NCBI GenBank assembly: GCA_001938485.1
Contig: MQRK01226571.1
Coordinates: 1-64,000, forward strand
Origin: Girardia tigrina
Taxonomy: Eukaryota
DNA: 64,000 bases
Direction: 5' to 3'
Program-made: the position numbers and the translations under genes
Shown here: piece after piece, positions 5,825-57,189 of the stretch
Position numbering within the stretch: position 1 is the stretch's first letter
How the letters are laid out: the number at the start of each line of letters is the position of its first letter
The notes under the pieces: generated by a model
Told to the model about the DNA's origin: nothing
Seen by the model: the letters and a program-made list of their open reading frames with translations, nothing else
Databases searched by the model: none

Positions 5825-7291
5825 TCAAATCTTTTTAATTGAAATAATATCTTTAATTGCCGCAATTCTTTCTGTCATTGGGGGTTGAGAGTGATTGAAT
5901 ATCGAGTACCATTTGTCACACAGTGGAAATCGGGAATTGTTATCTTGTAACTTTATAAGAGCATTGATCAATTGTTCACCTTTTCCTAACTTTACTACAA
6001 ACTCATCGGCCTGATATTCATTTCGTCTTGACAATAATGTCATTGTATATTCCAAAAGTGTGTGATAAGGTGAAAATAAGAACTGAAATATCAGTATTAA
6101 TTTAATCAAATTCGGTGTTCCGATTTCTTTAAATCCAAAAATTTTGAATAAATTTCCATAGTTGAAAAGGATTCCGAATGCATAAAACAACAAAAACAGA
6201 TTAATCTGACTGAAAATTAAATTTTTCGTTACATGATTAAGCTTCCAATGTCCAAATTCGTGAGCTAAAATAGCTAATACTTCTTCCTCTGTATGTTCTT
6301 GATTTCTTAATGTTATTTCATCTCCAAGAGTTTCCTTTAGTTTTAAAATCGGTTGCTCCTGTCCAAGAAGCGTATCAGATATAACAATATATTTGTTATT
6401 CCAAAACCCATATGTATAAATATTACTATGGACTATTTTCTTCGAACCTTTAGCTACCAGTATTTTCACCAACGGAAATTTAATACTCTCAGCAAAGTCT
6501 TCTATGGACGTTTTTAATGTACCATCACTCAATTGAGTGTGGTTATTAAAAAAAATGGCAAGAAATTCTGGATACACAAAATAAATAAGTACCATAACTG
6601 AAACGCTAAACGCCCAAGCATATAAATAAAAATATCTCCCACCCAATTTTATGATATTTAATAAGCAGTAACTAATCGGTAAAATTAGACATAAAGTCAT
6701 TGCAAAATTTCGTATTTGATCAAGAAAAAATAGTTTTCCAGTTGGTTTATTTAAGCCGTGCTTTTCTTCAAGATAAAAATTATTGTATATTTTCCAAGGT
6801 AAACCGTCGAGAAAGGAAAGTGTTGTAATGTATAATAAAAACACTAGAGAAGCTGTTAATTCATGATCTTCGGACAATGTTTCTTCTATCGGTAAATCTG
6901 TTAGGTCAATATCGGACTCAGTGATACTTTTGACGGATAACGTCCAAAACCATGGAAGAGTATTGCTCAAGAGAATAAATGTAACTTGCATCATTAAATA
7001 CCAACTGTTATACATGTTGAAATAGTTTTTATCCAGTGAATATTTTCTTGCTCGTTCATAATTTTCTTGAGTTATTGTAAACAAGATTTCTAATGGAGGA
7101 TTGACTGATTCTATCAAGAGTTTTCGCTGACGGTAATTTAAATAAGCATCGAATAAAAATGTTGACCATAAGAATCCTAAAATACCTAAAAATAAAATGA
7201 CTTCCAAATCTCCCATTAGAGCTCGCTCGAAGAAATCGACAATTTTTTCTTTATAAAAGTAATAATGGGATATATCGTTTTGAAAATCCAT
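5825..7291 (-). CDS. ZMPSTE24: CAAX prenyl protease 1 homolog (M48 zinc metalloprotease), single exon, divergent
   Basis: 488-aa ORF with multiple TM segments, YLNYRQ, ARKYSLDK, EEKHGLNK, HSNIYTYGF, SDTLL, zinc motif HEFGH, third ligand in EYQAD, and C-terminal PPMTERI. Confidence 0.93.
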   Translation of the reverse strand: MDFQNDISHYYFYKEKIVDFFERALMGDLEVILFLGILGFLWSTFLFDAYLNYRQRKLLIESVNPPLEILFTITQENYERARKYSLDKNYFNMYNSWYLMMQVTFILLSNTLPWFWTLSVKSITESDIDLTDLPIEETLSEDHELTASLVFLLYITTLSFLDGLPWKIYNNFYLEEKHGLNKPTGKLFFLDQIRNFAMTLCLILPISYCLLNIIKLGGRYFYLYAWAFSVSVMVLIYFVYPEFLAIFFNNHTQLSDGTLKTSIEDFAESIKFPLVKILVAKGSKKIVHSNIYTYGFWNNKYIVISDTLLGQEQPILKLKETLGDEITLRNQEHTEEEVLAILAHEFGHWKLNHVTKNLIFSQINLFLLFYAFGILFNYGNLFKIFGFKEIGTPNLIKLILIFQFLFSPYHTLLEYTMTLLSRRNEYQADEFVVKLGKGEQLINALIKLQDNNSRFPLCDKWYSIFNHSQPPMTERIAAIKDIISIKKI

Positions 7292-8273
7292 TTTATTTAC
7301 ATCTTTTTGGTTGTGTAAGTATTTGAATGGTTCATTATATATGTCTATGTATTGATAGATGCTTATTTTTTATTCATTATCGATAAATTTTATAAATTTT
7401 ATAATTGACAAATTAAATATATGTGTATAGTATATAATTTTTACAATCTGTAGAGTCACTTAAATTATTAAAGTATTATAGGCAATGAAGTGAAAAATTC
7501 TAAGTTAGAGTTCAAAATCTAAAATTAAATAACCAAAATGCAGAAAACAAAATAAATACATACGTTATAAACATGTATTTTCATTTAATATAAACTGAAT
7601 TCATCTGTTACATTTTAATATGGCAATTTTACACTTTAATCGGACATCTATATTATAAAATTATGAATACAAACAGATATGCAAAACTTACCAATCAAAA
7701 TTGACTGGTTTTAAGTTATGATAAGTCATTTAAATTTTAGAAGAGAAGTCTTATATAGAAATTGTAGAATAAATAAGTATGTTCATAATTAAATATACGC
7801 AAAAAAATAAGAGAAACAACAGCAAAGATACTTTATTCTTTACATTTTAAAAGGATACTTAATGTTTAAGTAAGACAATCTGACACTCTTTCATGATTGT
7901 CTTCACCTGAACTTTATTTATCATAGACATCAAATTTAAAATTCATGACTCAGATTATTTTACACATTTCGGAATATTAATCGGCTGCCAGAACAAACGA
8001 CTCAGAATACAAGAGACGGTATCATACACCGATGATCCTCGCCTTGGTCCACAACTCTACATGCTAACAAGAAGAAAGACGTTTCTGAGAAACAATGCGG
8101 TAAATTCAGACTCCTGTACACATCTACCGGTCCCAGACAGCTACCCACTTCTTTTCATCATTGACATTTTCCACCTTATCAATCAACAGCGACATTCTCC
8201 ACAATCGATATATACCAGGCTTACCACCAGGTCCCAGTTGCACAACTCGATTTTTTCATCTTTACAATGTCTT

Positions 8274-10773: not shown

Positions 10774-10871
10774 GTTTGAGAATTTCTATTTATTTTCAAA
10801 GCGAATTAAATTTTCGTTAATTTCGGTGAATCGAATTATAAAATATTCACGAAAAAATCAAAAAAAAAACC

Positions 10872-12209
10872 ATGTCAGATTTCGATGACGATATGGACGA
10901 CGGGGAATTGTCGATCGAGTATTCCTCGGAAGACAATTCGGAACCCGATGTCGATTTGGAGAATCAATATTATCACGCGAAATCGCTGAAAGAATCGAAT
11001 CCGTTATCGGCGATCGAAGAATTCAAAAAAGTGCTTCAAATCGAATCGGCGGGCGAGCGAGGCGAATGGGGCTTCAAAGCGCTCAAACAGATCATCAAGA
11101 TCCATTTCCGATTGAACAATTCCGAGGAAATGATGAAGAATTACGTGCAATTGTTGACGTACATCCGGTCGGCCGTCACGAGGAACTATTCCGAGAAGTC
11201 GATCAACTCGATTTTGGATTACGTGTCGACCTCGAAGCAAATGTCGATGCTGCAGAAGTTCTACACGACGACTCTGGAGGCGCTCAAGGAGGCCCGGAAC
11301 GAGCGGCTGTGGTTCAAGACCAACACGAAGCTCGGCAAGCTCTATCTCGAGATGAACCAGTGGATCCTGCTGCTGAGAATCATCAAGGAGCTGCGCCAGA
11401 GCTGCCAGACGAACGACGGCGAGGACGACCTGCGCAAGGGCACCCAGCTGCTGGAGATCTACGCGCTCGAGATCCAGATGTACACGGTGCAGCGCAACAA
11501 CAAGAAGCTCAAGAACCTGTACGAGCAGTCGCTGCACATCAAGTCCGCGATCCCGCACCCGCTCATCATGGGCATCATCCGCGAGTGCGGCGGCAAGATG
11601 CACCTGCGCCAGGGCGAGTTCGACAAGGCCCACACGGACTTCTTCGAGGCGTTCAAGAACTACGACGAGAGCGGCAGCCAGCGGCGCACGCAGTGCCTCA
11701 AGTACCTGGTGCTGTCGAACATGCTCACCAAGTCCGCCATCAACCCGTTCGACTCCCAGGAGATCAAGCCGTACCGCGACAACCCGGAGATCGTCGCCAT
11801 GACGAACCTGGTGTCCGCGTACCAGATCAACGACATCCAGACGTTCGAGGCGACCCTGGCCGAGAACGAGGACACGATCATGCAGGACCCGTTCATCCGC
11901 GAGCACATCGAGGAGCTGCTGCGCAACATCAGGATCGACGTGCTCATCGGGCTCGTCAAGCCGTACAAGACCGTGCGCATCGCGTTCCTCGCCCAGCGGC
12001 TGAACATCGGCGCCGCCGAGGTCGAGGGGCTGCTCGTGTCCTGCATCGCCGACAACGTCATCAAGGGCAAGATCGACCAGAAATCCGATATTCTCGTGAT
12101 CGACGAGCCGAGGAGGGAAGCCAAATACAAGTCGCTCGATAAACTGATTACGGAAATCGATAAACTGCATCACAATCTCGTGTCGCGAGTCGTCGACCAC
12201 TCGAGCTGA
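10872..12209 (+). CDS. COPS2: COP9 signalosome subunit 2 (CSN2/Alien), single exon
   Basis: 445-aa ORF with [105 protein letters not shown] and a C-terminal PCI domain. Confidence 0.98.
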
Positions 12210-51600: not shown

Positions 51601-52383
51601 ACTTATATATTCAAGTATATTCAAATTAAATGGAAGTTTCAACGATGATAAATGCATTTTTCTGTTTAAAACATTAGTTACCGAAACTCCAATTCCAAAA
51701 TTGTAAATTTTTAAGAAAACATCTTAAGTTTCAATCTATTGAGATCAGTGAGTCTGCTAATTACGACACAATTAATTGAACTATGATTTAAACTAATTGA
51801 AGCTGTTAATTTGTTCGTTAAAAATTCATCAAAATACAATCACATAAATTAAAAAAATCTGTTTATAATTTAGATAATTTTCTTATCCACAAGGGACATA
51901 TAAAAAATTTCGTGAATCCCACTTGAAGAACGCCTGGTTTGAATAATATGAAATTTAACAATTATTTCATCTAGAATTTTGTCAAATATTGAAGGTAAAA
52001 TTATATATTCTTGAGATCATTTTATTTTATTTCAAAAGAATGATCAGCAGTTGAATCTAGGGGCGTAGCTAAGAAAGATATTGAGGATCCATCCCCCAGA
52101 AATATTTTAACAAAATTTGTCATACTCAACTTCACTTTTAAAAGATTCACCAAATCTTAAAATGAGTCTCGATCTTCCATCTAAACCAGGAAGCAATTTC
52201 ATCTTTTGCCGTCATTGTTTTCTTTTCGGCAGTCTTTCTTTCTATAATCTTTTTACTGAACTTACAATGTGAATAAACTTCCTGTCTCGATTTCTTCTTC
52301 CGGTTAATTTTTTCCTCAATTGTAATTCTTCTTTTATATTTTCTAAAGGTAGACAGATTTACCTTAGAAAATGCGACGGGGGG

Positions 52384-55300
52384 GTCGTCCCTAGTTACCG
52401 TGGTTACCATGGTTACGTAACCAGTTACCACGCGGGGTTACCATGGCAACGGTCGCGATCACCCTAGCAACGGTCACGGTTACCATGGCAACGGTCGCGA
52501 TCACCCTAGCAACGCTTCTGATTGGTTCCTTGGTTCCCTAGCAACGGTCGTGATCACCTTAGAAACGCTTCTGATTGGTCCCCGGTTCCCTAGCAACGGT
52601 CGCGATCACCTTAGCAACGGTCGCGATCACCTTAGCAACGGTCGCGGTTCACTTGGAAACGCTTCTGATTGGTTCCCGGCTCCTTAGCAACGGTTTCGGC
52701 TCCCAGGGTAACGGTAACCAAGGAACTTTTCTCATTAGCAACGGATACAGTGATCCAAGGCGGTTGTAACCATGGTAACGGTCCCCGTATCCATAGCAAC
52801 CGTGACCCCATAACTAAGGACCGTAGAAAAAAGTGCTAATCGATCACTGCACAGTGTCCAAATGTGCTAAGGAATATTTTGAAAGTGCTAATCGATAGGG
52901 CACATTTTGCCACACATTTCTAATGTGCTAACACAGTGCTTTTTAAGTTGTACATGTACAAAAGTACAAAAATTAATACATTAAATTTTTTAAAAGTACT
53001 AGTGTCAAAAATCGATATCATATGTTTGATGCACATTTTGATTCTCTATTTGAATGTACAATTCAAATTTTCATATATTGATTACTTTTCTCTATAATTA
53101 GCATAATGTATAAATTTACACAAAGTGCACATTGATTTTAAAGGTACGTGGAAGCAGAATATCAGAAAAGTGCTCATATACTTGAATAGGAAACCATATA
53201 TATACATTCAGATTCAACATCAACATTTTCATAAAAGTGCTGATAAATCGATTTTTTCGAACATTTTTCAAATTCTCAAAAAAGTGCTCAAAAATCTATA
53301 TTTTCGTATATATCTGAAACCTATATGATATATGTGTTTTGTTTTACCGTCATACAATACTTCATGAATTGTCTAATGTACTTAGTAATCAATCACAAGT
53401 ACCATGGTTACCGTAACCAAGATACATAACATTTTATTTTACATGTAAAAACGACATGTATAAAACTCCTATTGTACTTTAAACATCAATATAATACATA
53501 ACATCTTTACAATCATCTATACAATCATNNNNNNNNNNNNNNNNNNNNNNNNNNNNNNNNNNNNNNNNNNNNNNNNNNNNNNNNNNNNNNNNNNNNNNNN
53601 NNNNNNNNNNNNNNNNNNNNNNNNNNNNNNNNNNNNNNNNNNNNNNNNNNNNNNNNNNNNNNNNNNNNNCACATAAGTATAATCACAAGTACCATGGTTA
53701 TATATTATATTATATTATATATAACATTACTTATATATATCTATATATTATACTATTTAATATATTATATTATACTATGTTATATTATATTATTTTATAT
53801 ATTATATTATATTATGTATTATATTATTATGTATAATATATATACACCTTAGAAACCATCATTGCTATCTTAAAAACCATGAAAAACATCTTATAAATCA
53901 TCGAAAACATGTAAAGACCATCAAAATTACACAAAAAAGGGACAAAAATCAATTCTGCCTAGGCTACACATGTGCTAATCAATACTGTACATGTACAGCC
54001 TAGGCAGCCTAGGCAGCCTAGGCAGCATATCTAAGATTAGTACAAGTGTATAAGATATAAGTTCATAATTGTATAAAGTGCAATATATTCATGTTTTAAT
54101 ATAATATAGTGTAAAGTGAGGCCGAATACCCATAGGGTATATAAGATGAAGCAAGCAAAATATCGAAAATCTGTCTGAATACATAGATAGAAANNNNNNN
54201 NNNNNNNNNNNNNNNNNNNNNNNNNNNNNNNNNNNNNNNNNNNNNNNNNNNNNNNNNNNNNNNNNNNNNNNNNNNNNNNNNNNNNNNNNNNNNNNNNNNN
54301 NNNNNNNNNNNNNNNNNNNNNNNNNNNNNNNNNNNNNNNNNNNNNNNNNNNNNNNNNNNNNNNNNNNNNNNNNNNNNNNNNNNNNNNNNNNNNNNNNNNN
54401 NNNNNNNNNNNNNNNNNNNNNNNNNNNNNNNNNNNNNNNNNNNNNNNNNNNNNNNNNNNNNNNNNNNNNNNNNNNNNNNNNNNNNNNNNNNNNNNNNNNN
54501 NNNNNNNNNNNNNNNNNNNNNNNNNNNNNNNNNNNNNACGACATGTATAAAATTCCTATTGTACTTTAAACATTAATATAATACATAACATCTTTACAAT
54601 CATCTATACAATCATATACACAAGTATAATCACAAGTACCATGGTTACCGCAACCACTATACATAACATTTTAATATTATATACATATTATTATTATATT
54701 ATATATTATATTATGTATTATTATATTATTATATTATTATATTATTATTATATTATTATGTATATTATATATACACCTTAGAAACCATCATTGTTATCTT
54801 AAAAACCATGAAAAACACCTTAAAATCATGAAAAATACCTTAAAAATCATCAAAAACATGTAAAAACCATCAAAATTACACAAAAAAGTGTAAAAAATTA
54901 ATTCTACACATGTGCTGCCTAGGCTAATCAATACTGCACTAGGCTGCATACATGCTCATCAATACTGTACTAAGCCTAGGCTGCCGTTAAATCAATAATT
55001 TCACTATTGTACTAAGTGCAATGTATTCATGTTTTAATATAATATAGTGTAAAGTGAGGCAGAATGCCCATAGGGTATAGATAGCGAAGCAAGCAAAATA
55101 TCGAAAATCTGTCTGAATACATGTATAGTAACCCATAGGTAAATAGTCAGAATATGATCTTAGATTCTCGAAAAAATCAATACATAGTGCTTAATTGATA
55201 TGTTGTGTATTATAGTGTAAAGTGGGATAGAACTCTCAAATGGTTTTATATGGCGAAACAAGCAAAATATCGAAAATCTATATGTATGTTCTGCCTCACT

Positions 55301-56720
55301 ATATGTATGTTTTGCCTCACTTTACACTATATTAAATTAAAACATGAATACATTACACTTTGTACAATTGTGAACTTATTGATTTCATACACTTGCACAT
55401 GTATAGTATTGATAAGCACATATGTATCCTAGATAGCCTGCCTAGGCAGAATTGATTTTTTTTGCACATTTTTATGTAATTTTGATGGTTTTTATATGTT
55501 TTCGATGATTTTAAAGGTATTTTTCATGATTTTAAGGTGTTTTTCATGGTTTTTAAGATAAAATTGATGGTTTCTAAGGTGTATATATAATATAATAATA
55601 TAATATATAACATAATATAACATTATATAACATAGTATAATATCTAATATTAAAATGTTACATATCATGGTTACGGTAACCATGGTACTTGTGATTATAC
55701 TTGTGTACATTAGTTGATTATACAGATGTTATGCATTATATTGATGTATGCTTGAAGTACAATAGAAGTTTTTACATGTAGATTTTACATGTAAAATAAA
55801 ATGTTATGTATGTTGGTTACGGTAACCATGGTACTTGTGATTATACTTGTGTACATTAGGAAATTCATGAGGTATTGTTTGATGGTAAACAACATACATA
55901 TATCATATGGGTTTCAGATATATACGAAAATATAGATTTTTGAGCACTTTTTTGAGAATTTGAAAAATGTTCGAAAAAATCGATTTATCAGCACTTTTAT
56001 GAAAATGTTGATGTTGAATCTGAATGTGCGTATGTTGGTTACTATTCAAGTGCATGAGCATTTTTCTGATATTCTGCTTCCACGTACCTTTAAAATCAAT
56101 GTGCACTTTGTGTAAATTTACACATTATGCTAATTATAGAGAAAAGTAATCAATATATGAAAATTTGAATTGCATATTCAAATAGAGAATCAAAATGTGC
56201 ATCAAACATATGATATCGATTTTTGACACTAGTACTTTTAAAAAATTTGATGTATTGATTTTTGTACTTTTGCACATGTGCAACTTAAAAAGCACTGTGC
56301 TAGCACATTAGAAATGTGTGGCAAAATGTGCACTATCGATTAGCACTTTCAAAATATTCCTTAGCCATTTGGGCACTGTACAGTGATCGATTAGTACTTT
56401 TTTCTACGGTCCTTAGTTACGGGGTCACGGTTGCTATGGATACGGGAACCGTAACCATGGTTACAACCGCCTTGGATCACTGTATCCGTTGCTAATGAGA
56501 AACGTTCCTTGGTTACCGTTATCCTGGGAGCCGAAACCATTGCTAAGGAACCGGGAACCAATCAGAAGCGTTTCCCAGTGAACTGAAACCGTTGCTATGG
56601 TGATCGCTACCGTTGCCATTGTAACCGTGACCGTTGCTAAGATGATCGCGACCGTTGCCATGGTAACCCCGCGTGGTAACTGGTTACGTTACCATGGCAA
56701 CCACGGTAACTAGGGACGAC
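52384..56720. mobile_element. Giant non-autonomous foldback element with >1.3-kb inverted arms
   Basis: 52384 onward is the reverse complement of 56720 back to ~55290. Termini GTCGTCCCTAGTTACCGTGG, with GGGGGG on both flanks. No real ORF. Two N gaps and a duplicated inner arm segment (53380-54190 vs 54540-55130). Confidence 0.92.
52395..52800. repeat. 21-bp tandem array with RFX X-box and NF-Y Y-box motifs (mirror copy at ~56425-56710)
   Basis: Units GGTCGCGATCACCCTAGCAAC; GTTACCATGGCAAC at 52437 and 52479; CTGATTGG three times. Confidence 0.8.
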
Positions 56721-57189
56721 GGGGGGTGGGGGAGAACCCGCATTTTTCTTCTACTGTATACAAATCTTTCCTCTCAAACAGGTTTTCGAAACACTGAGAT
56801 TTTCATTTTCTATTTCATCGATTTCCTTAAAATGTTTCATTTGATCAAAACTATTCTCTGTAACAGCATCGTTTAAATTTTCGTTTTCTTGTTTTACCTC
56901 TTTCTTTAATGGCTGCCACAATCACAACCTGGCTCTTGTTAAAGTACCAGATATACATTCTCTGAGCAACATGCAGGGTATCGTATTAAAAGCATGCAAC
57001 TTTTTCTCAATCTCTCTAAAAAGAGTCATTATTTTCAAAATGTTTCTATCTGAGAAAAATATAGCGAAGCTCATTACTCGGTGTGAAAATCGATCTATTT
57101 AAAATTATAATGCTATCAATCGATTTACTAAACTTTATATGCTTTTTATGGATTAATATAGTGTGGTGTGTGGGGGAGGTGCATGAGAC

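Follow-up and report, generated by a model that had tools for sequence, protein, structure and literature searches.

Probable gene-less member of a high-copy Polinton family in Girardia tigrina, with two coding kinds that likely complement each other as genome segments

Polintons are defined by a polymerase and an integrase on one molecule, and their terminal inverted repeats (TIRs) are given as about 50-1500 bp with an AG-type end motif (PMC8097293). Pipelines described for finding them seek both genes within ~20 kb (10.1101/2023.08.22.554363), so a family in which the two genes are split would escape them or be classed as decayed. Figure legends of 10.1101/697771 and PMC8502044 mark TBP-like genes. 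We found no bipartite or split Polinton in the literature covered; Repbase, subscription papers and supplements, which may hold consensus entries, were outside this scope. Here, we analyzed a 64,000-nucleotide stretch of Girardia tigrina DNA (the window) that contains a 4.4-kb mirror-image repeat with a damaged left end. Sequence comparison makes it likely that this element belongs, as a copy without genes, to a high-copy family of Polintons. The two coding kinds of this family, segments A and D, would likely complement each other as parts of a bipartite genome. With a little less assurance, we propose this as the first bipartite Polinton, with a replication segment and a virion-integration segment that are separately integrated in hundreds to thousands of copies and accompanied by gene-less satellites. 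The window element is best read as a gene-less third class beside segments A and D; on its own, it is an ordinary non-autonomous derivative.

The element spans 52363-56755, slightly beyond the limits of 52378..56726 given in a preliminary description of this DNA. That description had seen inverted arms over most of the element, a duplicated inner arm, N gaps and an absence of coding sequence, all of which held up. The outer arms pair 52591-53519 with 56639-55711 (92.4% identity) and the inner arms pair 54541-55064 with 55779-55310 (77.8% identity). The insertion target is the left part of a host repeat (52157..52362), which aligns with 14/14 empty paralogs at 81-90%. This is followed on the forward strand by the damaged left end (52363..52377), recognized by comparison with empty sites and family termini as a 3-base filler and a terminus remnant, and by the G half of an internal palindrome with GTCGTC, which is internal and not terminal (52378..52389). 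The left TIR (~1.1 kb, 52366..53528, forward) is common to segment A and D copies, and its first 450 bp consist of 21- and 52-bp tandem units containing what we take to be RFX X-box-like palindromes and CCAAT words. Next, a second copy of the left sub-terminal block (53670..54193, forward) sits between assembly gaps of 141 N (53529..53669) and 344 N (54194..54537), 485 N together. Within it, 53671-54193 aligns with 54618-55131 at 75% gapped identity; this is either a real duplication or a misplaced contig of another copy. The left sub-terminal arm (54538..55279, forward) is the non-coding block that many segment A copies carry after the TIR, and the centre of symmetry (55280..55288) is where coding copies hold their gene block. 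The right half comprises an inverted and shortened sub-terminal arm (55289..55710, reverse) and a right TIR that is complete to the true terminus 5'-AGTAG (55711..56755, reverse; CTACT at 56751-56755). Beyond it lies the right part of the host repeat (56756..56916), beginning with GTATAC (56756..56761, forward), the surviving copy of a predicted target duplication whose 6-bp length is taken from other family copies; the same six bases are the first host bases in the empty sites. A tblastn search with every protein of A, B, C and D gave no coding remnant in the window element (none at E<0.01); a protein-primed polymerase is thus absent from this copy.

The ends of the element differ from those first proposed. 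The preliminary description had taken GTCGTC as the terminus, GGGGGG on both sides as a target duplication suggesting a preference for G-runs, and CGAC-GGGGGG-GTCG at the left as an end-to-end junction. GTCGTC does occur at 52384, with its complement ending at 56720 (2 matches versus 0.14 expected), and GGGGGG adjoins both. However, the 22-mer searched for had 447 exact matches in genome G000 (control, 0), and in 30/30 fetched loci the family sequence ran 18 to ~50 bp further outward through a C-run/G-run palindrome and then AGTAG, placing GTCGTC and the G-runs ~45 bp within the element. On the left, GGGGGG is the palindrome's G half; on the right, GGGGGG (56721-56726) is the complement of its internal C-run; each end of the element has lost the palindrome's other half. 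The supposed junction is what remains of the left terminus after a deletion; the outermost AGTAG and the left copy of the target duplication are missing. The G runs, though present where reported, are part of the element, as both family termini and empty sites indicate, which is an outcome that the preliminary description had itself named as refuting its reading. Specifically, in 14/14 paralogs the left flank of the empty site runs straight into GTATAC-type sequence with no G-run. In 69 termini, selected by a filter that required the first four bases of AGTAG, conservation begins at AGTAG and flanks are random, with GGGGGG in 0/69, leaving no sign of a G-run target preference.

To characterize target duplications, we compared the flanks of two-ended A or gene-less copies, leaving out those with eroded ends (e.g., C218208). 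The flanks matched at 6/6 positions in 5/9 copies and at 5/6 in the other 4/9, compared with 6/380 random flank pairs, so that the tabulation which the preliminary description had called for yields a duplication of variable sequence; its length is exactly 6 in four perfect copies outside a microsatellite. Segment D duplications are weaker (5/6, at best 4/6, and one pair without a match). The family TIR is ~1 kb long and has the end motif AGTAGG. The earlier proposal that a protein-primed element of the Polinton/adintovirus type, with 6-bp target duplications, gave rise to this coding-less form is supported. It is very improbable that the family is instead a cut-and-paste foldback element of the MULE, Galileo or P type with captured Polinton genes. 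Its arms are modular, contain tandem units and form an almost complete palindrome, much as in foldback elements, but duplications are 6 bp, against the 7-10 bp that go with a DDE transposase in the MULE/Galileo/P type, the ends are AGTAG, no shared transposase was found beside A blocks (168 adjoining segments), and whole Polinton gene sets lie within the TIRs. The variant of this idea in which a GTCGTC-ended element targets G-runs is refuted by the AGTAG termini, the target duplications and the empty sites.

The preliminary description had also suggested a search for long coding copies. We found pPolB, integrase, ATPase and capsid genes, but divided over two kinds of copy; that the coding members fall into two complementary gene sets had been missed. 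Segment A (~8.5 kb; two gap-free copies of 8317 and 8674 bp) has the order TIR-TBP-X-Y/pPolB-TIR, with a TBP-like gene (PF00352) and a pPolB (PF03175 + Endonuclease VII) that lies inside the TIRs. Many A copies are further deleted or carry a flipped polymerase cassette. One A locus, L133, adjoins the ATPase of another lineage. A copy with 11.6 kb between its TIRs (C245630) proved to contain nested fragments of other elements. We had considered segment A a polymerase-only satellite without an integrase of its own, an idea dropped once segment D was found.

Segment D (~9 kb; 9043 bp in C223974) has the order TIR-acidic ORF-ATPase-integrase-minor capsid-pVII-like-major capsid-protease-ORF-TIR. 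Its gene block continues into the TIR in one alignment on 9 contigs at the right end and 4 at the left, with a single junction per end. The integrase has rve and chromodomain regions, and the ATPase is 54-73% identical to the A32-type ATPase of the metagenome Polinton L237. Identification of the major capsid rests on fold, as its predicted model (pLDDT 58) matches double jelly-roll capsids (Foldseek E 1e-12), while the protease matches ASFV S273R weakly (E 0.78) and the putative minor capsid and pVII-like genes are assigned by position and homology to L237 only. None of the ORFs assigned as major capsid, protease, pVII-like and acidic was recognized by Pfam; a 0.98 match in the Atlas was to a cluster in which 24% of members have DJR, with low recognition.

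The two gene sets are complementary and non-overlapping between shared termini, together forming one full gene set with nothing duplicated. D-family genes occurred in 0/66 A loci, and polymerase, TBP, X or Y in 0/18 long and 0/40 short D loci. Among the matches listed, 258 A-gene and 208 D-gene contigs had none in common, compared with 6 and 13 within the sets. One contig, C233041, has a pPolB match 3 kb from a D capsid match; here a type C element precedes a D copy, and the D copy's own TIR stands between them. TIR identity was the same within and between segments (A-A 0.856, A-D 0.857, D-D 0.857), and the TIR tree is interleaved. Across 5 A and 6 D gene stretches, the dN/dS-like ratio was 0.13-0.46 for shared variants and 0.70-1.03 for singletons. 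Shared variants in both gene sets are thus under purifying selection; stops and frameshifts are present in the copies examined. Contigs of public runs X1, X2, X8 and X16 cover all bins of one D and one A stretch, a result silent on expression, copy ratio, free ends and linkage.

Relatives of both segments exist as single pieces. In metagenome Polintons L237, L280 and L286, TBP, ATPase, integrase, capsid and pPolB occur together, and A's TBP and D's integrase group with L237-like Polintons (100/100 and 99/98, respectively). A's polymerase is not sister to that of L237 (29-36%), so A is not simply half of an L237-like parent. A sister form in metagenome contigs L229, L230 and L231 (TBP 65%, TIR 83-89% to the window element's family) joins TBP to the acidic ORF of D, and the end of the ATPase to ORF X. 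A 41-bp motif that follows D's first ORF and A's ORF X also flanks the TBP-X pair in this form. No sister form was present among fetched loci of G000; one contig of run X2 leaves a D stretch into sister-type letters. IMG/VR scans returned only distant relatives or none.

These relatives bear on the possibility that A and D are deletion derivatives of a rare single-piece Polinton, present or recent, that supplies all functions, with the window element as a third derivative. We consider this unlikely, though it draws some support from the linkage of genes of both sets in the sister form, the single-piece relatives, the deleted or flipped A copies and an assembly so fragmented (255,254 contigs) that it could lack a rare parent of 16-18 kb. 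Against it, none of the 66 A loci or 18 long D loci had polymerase and integrase together on a 13-25 kb element, the A-gene and D-gene contigs listed had no member in common, and both ends of each gene block abut a TIR. Moreover, purifying selection is not expected in a passive derivative, but it acts on the shared variants of D, which has one junction per end.

Types B and C, two further Polinton lineages in the host genome, are complete. Type B (pPolB, integrase, ATPase, capsid) is abundant, starts AGTAGT and has a 6-bp duplication (CTAACT) in a 16.7-kb copy, all of which would suit a scheme in which A and D are independent satellites of type B or C and do not depend on each other. This is improbable: type B's TIR is unrelated to the A/D TIR beyond the first bases, the D integrase is only 28-35% identical to those of types B and C, and A and D draw on one TIR pool and jointly hold one gene set without duplicates. 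Type B was also considered as the parent, as the family TIR stands beside genes of five B/C loci; it points outward there, and in the three loci compared (L062, L068, L078) insertion positions in B differ, so they are nested insertions.

We return to the bipartite reading, under which segment A's protein-primed polymerase would copy any molecule with AGTAG ends. AG at bases 1-2 and 4-5 would permit a 3-base slide-back, a mechanism known from adenovirus. The integrase of segment D would integrate any molecule of this kind with a 6-bp stagger, and packaging would fall to segment D's ATPase, capsids and protease, as assigned above. The likely source of the window copy is an A-type molecule that lost its whole gene block, by template switch or deletion between the arms; the product would then have been inserted in trans. 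The left end of the copy was presumably lost later, so it is probably immobile now. The A/D split itself likely arose via a short repeat, the 41-bp motif.

A Polinton in two segments would demonstrate that the transition from a single piece to segments is possible within Polintons themselves, the same transition seen in bidnaviruses, which use a Polinton polymerase. Because both segments and gene-less satellites integrate, dated copies of all three would open models of multipartite-virus origin from complementary defectives (PMC10223652, PMC10159356) to testing on a fossil record; if the reading is true, the host genome would record each segment's relative success over time.

The family resembles Polintons/Mavericks (adintoviruses, Eupolintoviridae), as characterized in the accessible text of PMC8097293, 10.1101/2023.08.22.554363 and PMC6431247, in its AG-type termini, 6-bp duplication and ~1 kb TIR, and in an intronless pPolB with a homing-type endonuclease domain, an rve and chromodomain integrase, a packaging ATPase, jelly-roll capsids and a protease. 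It differs in that described Polintons keep the polymerase and the integrase on a single unit of 13-25 kb, whereas here two 8-9 kb units share the same TIR. Its terminus is AGTAGG, compared with (AGT)2, (AG)3 or (AC)3A in PMC8097293, and, unlike the two modules described for vertebrate Polintons, the split places the ATPase with the integrase and not with the polymerase. TBP-carrying single-piece Polintons (L237, L280, L286) share the small TBP and the ATPase, integrase, capsid and protease lineage (45-70% to L237), but are one molecule with a polymerase on another branch than segment A's. Replication genes are likewise kept on separate TIR-bounded molecules from structural genes in the Acheta domesticus segmented densovirus (PMC10267136) and from cargo genes in yeast killer/helper linear plasmid pairs (PMC13348850); these belong to other virus groups, and neither is known to insert by a retroviral-type integrase. 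Finally, bidnaviruses and Vesanto virus have several linear segments with matching termini, one of which encodes a Polinton-type polymerase, but are described in the available text of PMC8502044 and PMC8363768 as ssDNA viruses with parvovirus NS1, a single jelly-roll capsid and no integrase. In contrast to them, the A/D family is integrated and has kept the virion and integrase genes of Polintons.

Self-comparison of the window bore out the near-complete palindrome claimed in the preliminary description: the outer arms (52591-53519 against 56639-55711) share 92.4% identity and the inner arms (54541-55064 against 55779-55310) 77.8%, with 485 N split over two gaps and no coding remnants found within the element. 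GTCGTC and GGGGGG also lie where first reported, but the ends of the element lie elsewhere. The 1.43-Gb genome (G000) contains 447 exact copies of a 22-mer that begins at GTCGTC and 599 matches to a 25-mer pattern farther outward (control, 0 for each). At all 30 loci fetched for the 22-mer, family sequence extends outward via a C-run/G-run palindrome to AGTAG. We compared 69 termini, using a filter that demanded the first four terminal bases beforehand; bases beyond AGTAG were random, and GGGGGG was the 6-bp flank in 0/69. The flanks of the window element are parts of another repeat, and in 14/14 empty paralogs the left flank joins straight to the right flank without a G-run. Because family sequence runs out to AGTAG and the empty paralogs lack the G-run, we place the element at 52363-56755. 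On the right the terminus is intact, with GTATAC next to it; on the left the outermost bases and the adjoining copy of the target site have been lost. Of the two G-runs, one comes from each half of the internal palindrome. GTCGTC as terminus and GGGGGG as target duplication are thus abandoned, and the other part of the earlier interpretation stands: the window copy is almost certainly a gene-less Polinton derivative.

The host repeat (52157-52362 and 56756-56916 in the window; L190-L203) reaches at least 2 kb in other copies and bears a decayed ORF. Elsewhere, the window holds two intronless ORFs: one of 455 aa at 10842-12209 (G+C near 58%, against ~30% in the window), which we take to resemble COP9 signalosome subunit 2, and one of 514 aa at 5825-7369 (-), presumably resembling CAAX prenyl protease.

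The terminal inverted repeat (TIR) of the window element points into one pPolB lineage, which bears an Endonuclease VII domain. These copies, termed segment A, were found by a pPolB search (PF03175, at least 93 matches) followed by flank reading, and 66 loci were examined (40 polymerase-centred, 20 TBP-centred and 6 joined pairs). Between the TIRs come, in order, a TBP-like gene of 145 aa (PF00352), ORF X, and ORF Y continuing into pPolB; two gap-free copies of 8317 and 8674 bp have no further content. We found no common extra cassette in the internal gaps and 168 adjoining segments, only unrelated transposons. The window's inner arms correspond to the sub-terminal block of segment A copies. 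The Y-polymerase cassette is inverted in some copies, giving two isomers (L103, L123 and L125 versus L127, L139 and L099), and a 339-bp palindrome lies at one cassette edge in L103.

TBP relatives in metagenome contigs belong to complete Polintons, and one such contig (L237) carries TBP, ATPase, integrase, capsid, protease and pPolB together. Its integrase and capsid had at least 136 and 107 matches in the genome, respectively, and the best 40 integrase/capsid loci all represent one family, mostly at 83-100% amino-acid identity. In 18 long loci, termed segment D (9043 bp in C223974), the window TIR encloses a gene block ordered acidic ORF, ATPase, integrase (rve and chromo domains), minor capsid, pVII-like ORF, major capsid, protease and last ORF; we assume the labels "minor capsid" and "pVII-like" from position and gene order. 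On each side the block passes into the TIR at one identical junction (9 contigs on the right, 4 on the left). The major capsid model (pLDDT 58, 6 sequences) matched iridovirus, Sputnik and mavirus capsids (E 1e-12 to 1e-11), and the protease is a tentative call from a weak match to ASFV S273R and 46% identity to the L237 ORF.

Segments A and D share their ends. TIR cores from 25 arms of A, 14 of D and 3 of gene-less copies showed the same degree of identity whether compared within A (0.856), between A and D (0.857) or within D (0.857), and they interleaved in a tree. The actual target duplication shows in nine two-ended A-type or gene-less copies, of which five have flanks matching at 6/6 bases (one within a microsatellite) and four at 5/6, compared with a chance level of 6/380 random pairs from 20 flanks; L041 was scored by eye and eroded-end copies were left out. 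Segment D duplications were weaker (5/6, at best 4/6, one pair without a match). In a simple count of nonsynonymous against synonymous changes, variants in at least 3 copies gave a ratio of 0.16-0.32 for A genes and 0.13-0.46 for D genes (ATPase left out, too few copies), and singletons 0.70-1.03, so both gene sets were functional during spread and decayed after insertion.

The two gene sets were separate at the loci examined: no D-family gene occurred in the 66 A loci (of two integrase matches there, one is a type B integrase and the other an LTR integrase), and no polymerase, TBP, X or Y in 18 long and 40 short D loci, partly overlapping sets. Among the matches listed, 258 A-gene and 208 D-gene contigs had none in common, while polymerase and TBP shared 6 contigs and integrase and capsid 13; this count left out six type B integrase matches (38-41%) and two TBP matches. 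In one contig where a polymerase lies near a D capsid, the polymerase belongs to a type C element, and the adjacent D copy has its own TIR between the two. A hidden single-piece parent element, the main rival to two complementing segments, would fit an assembly in 255,254 contigs that breaks within family repeats. It would also fit a sister form with the same TIR core (L229, L230 and L231; TBP 65%, TIR 83-89%), in which TBP is linked to the acidic ORF and the end of the ATPase to X; one contig of run X2 also points to this form. None of the fetched G000 loci holds it. We judge a single-piece parent unlikely.

The best-supported reading from these sequences is that the family is probably bipartite. 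The sequences establish anatomy, separation, shared ends and selection; the roles in replication, insertion, packaging and passenger transport are inferred. The A polymerase would replicate any molecule bearing family ends by protein priming, the D integrase would insert such molecules with a 6-bp stagger, and the D ATPase, capsids and protease would package them; gene-less molecules would be passengers of both. The D acidic ORF and A ORF X are each followed by a 41-bp motif (90% alike), which flanks the TBP-X pair in the sister contigs, so recombination between motif copies would yield the D order directly. A TBP and D integrase group with L237-type single-piece elements in trees. A point against is that the A polymerase is nearer to the Polinton polymerases of insects and molluscs (41-53%) than to that of L237, so a polymerase exchange is needed as an extra step. 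All four full X-box-like palindromes of the window, and 4/5 CTGATTGG words, lie within the TIR; RFX and NF-Y are candidate binders.

At L133 (1-3700), an A-type TBP has as neighbours a decayed polymerase, a 342-aa ORF that matches no Pfam family and an ATPase from yet another Polinton-like lineage; we count this junction of TBP with another lineage's ATPase against a bipartite family. Complete Polintons of type B (16.7 kb long, with AGTAGT ends and a 6-bp duplication) and of type C could assist in trans. The type B TIR is itself a 330-bp unit bordered at its two ends by AGTAGT in inverted orientation, resembling a miniature element placed at either end of the Polinton (L071:2269-2601, L072:8660-8992, L044:3108-3435, L058:2395-2725). 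Copies of the family frequently sit inside or next to elements of types B and C, at differing positions (L062:2523, L068:1770, L078:1940, L013, L056:3005, L072:9881, L378:2614), and at L080:285-6238 a Chuvirus-type fusion glycoprotein domain beside a retroviral-type aspartyl protease abuts a family terminus.

Polintons are described as single units of 12.7-24.6 kb with two modules (PMC8097293). We found no split Polinton in the literature searched, Repbase, subscription papers and supplements lying outside its scope, nor is one described in the accessible parts of PMC11161782, PMC3014272, PMC11131425, PMC12567637 and 10.1101/2024.01.15.575659. For some planarians, expansions of Mavericks are reported, with no account of their structure in the portion available (10.64898/2025.12.11.693146), and polymerase exchanges have been described in nematode Polintons (10.1101/2023.08.22.554363). 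The family's termini, duplication and gene set agree with Polintons as outlined in PMC8097293 and PMC6431247, and bidnaviruses and Vesanto virus are known to use a Polinton polymerase and to have segments whose termini match (PMC8502044, PMC8363768, 10.1101/2024.03.25.586562).
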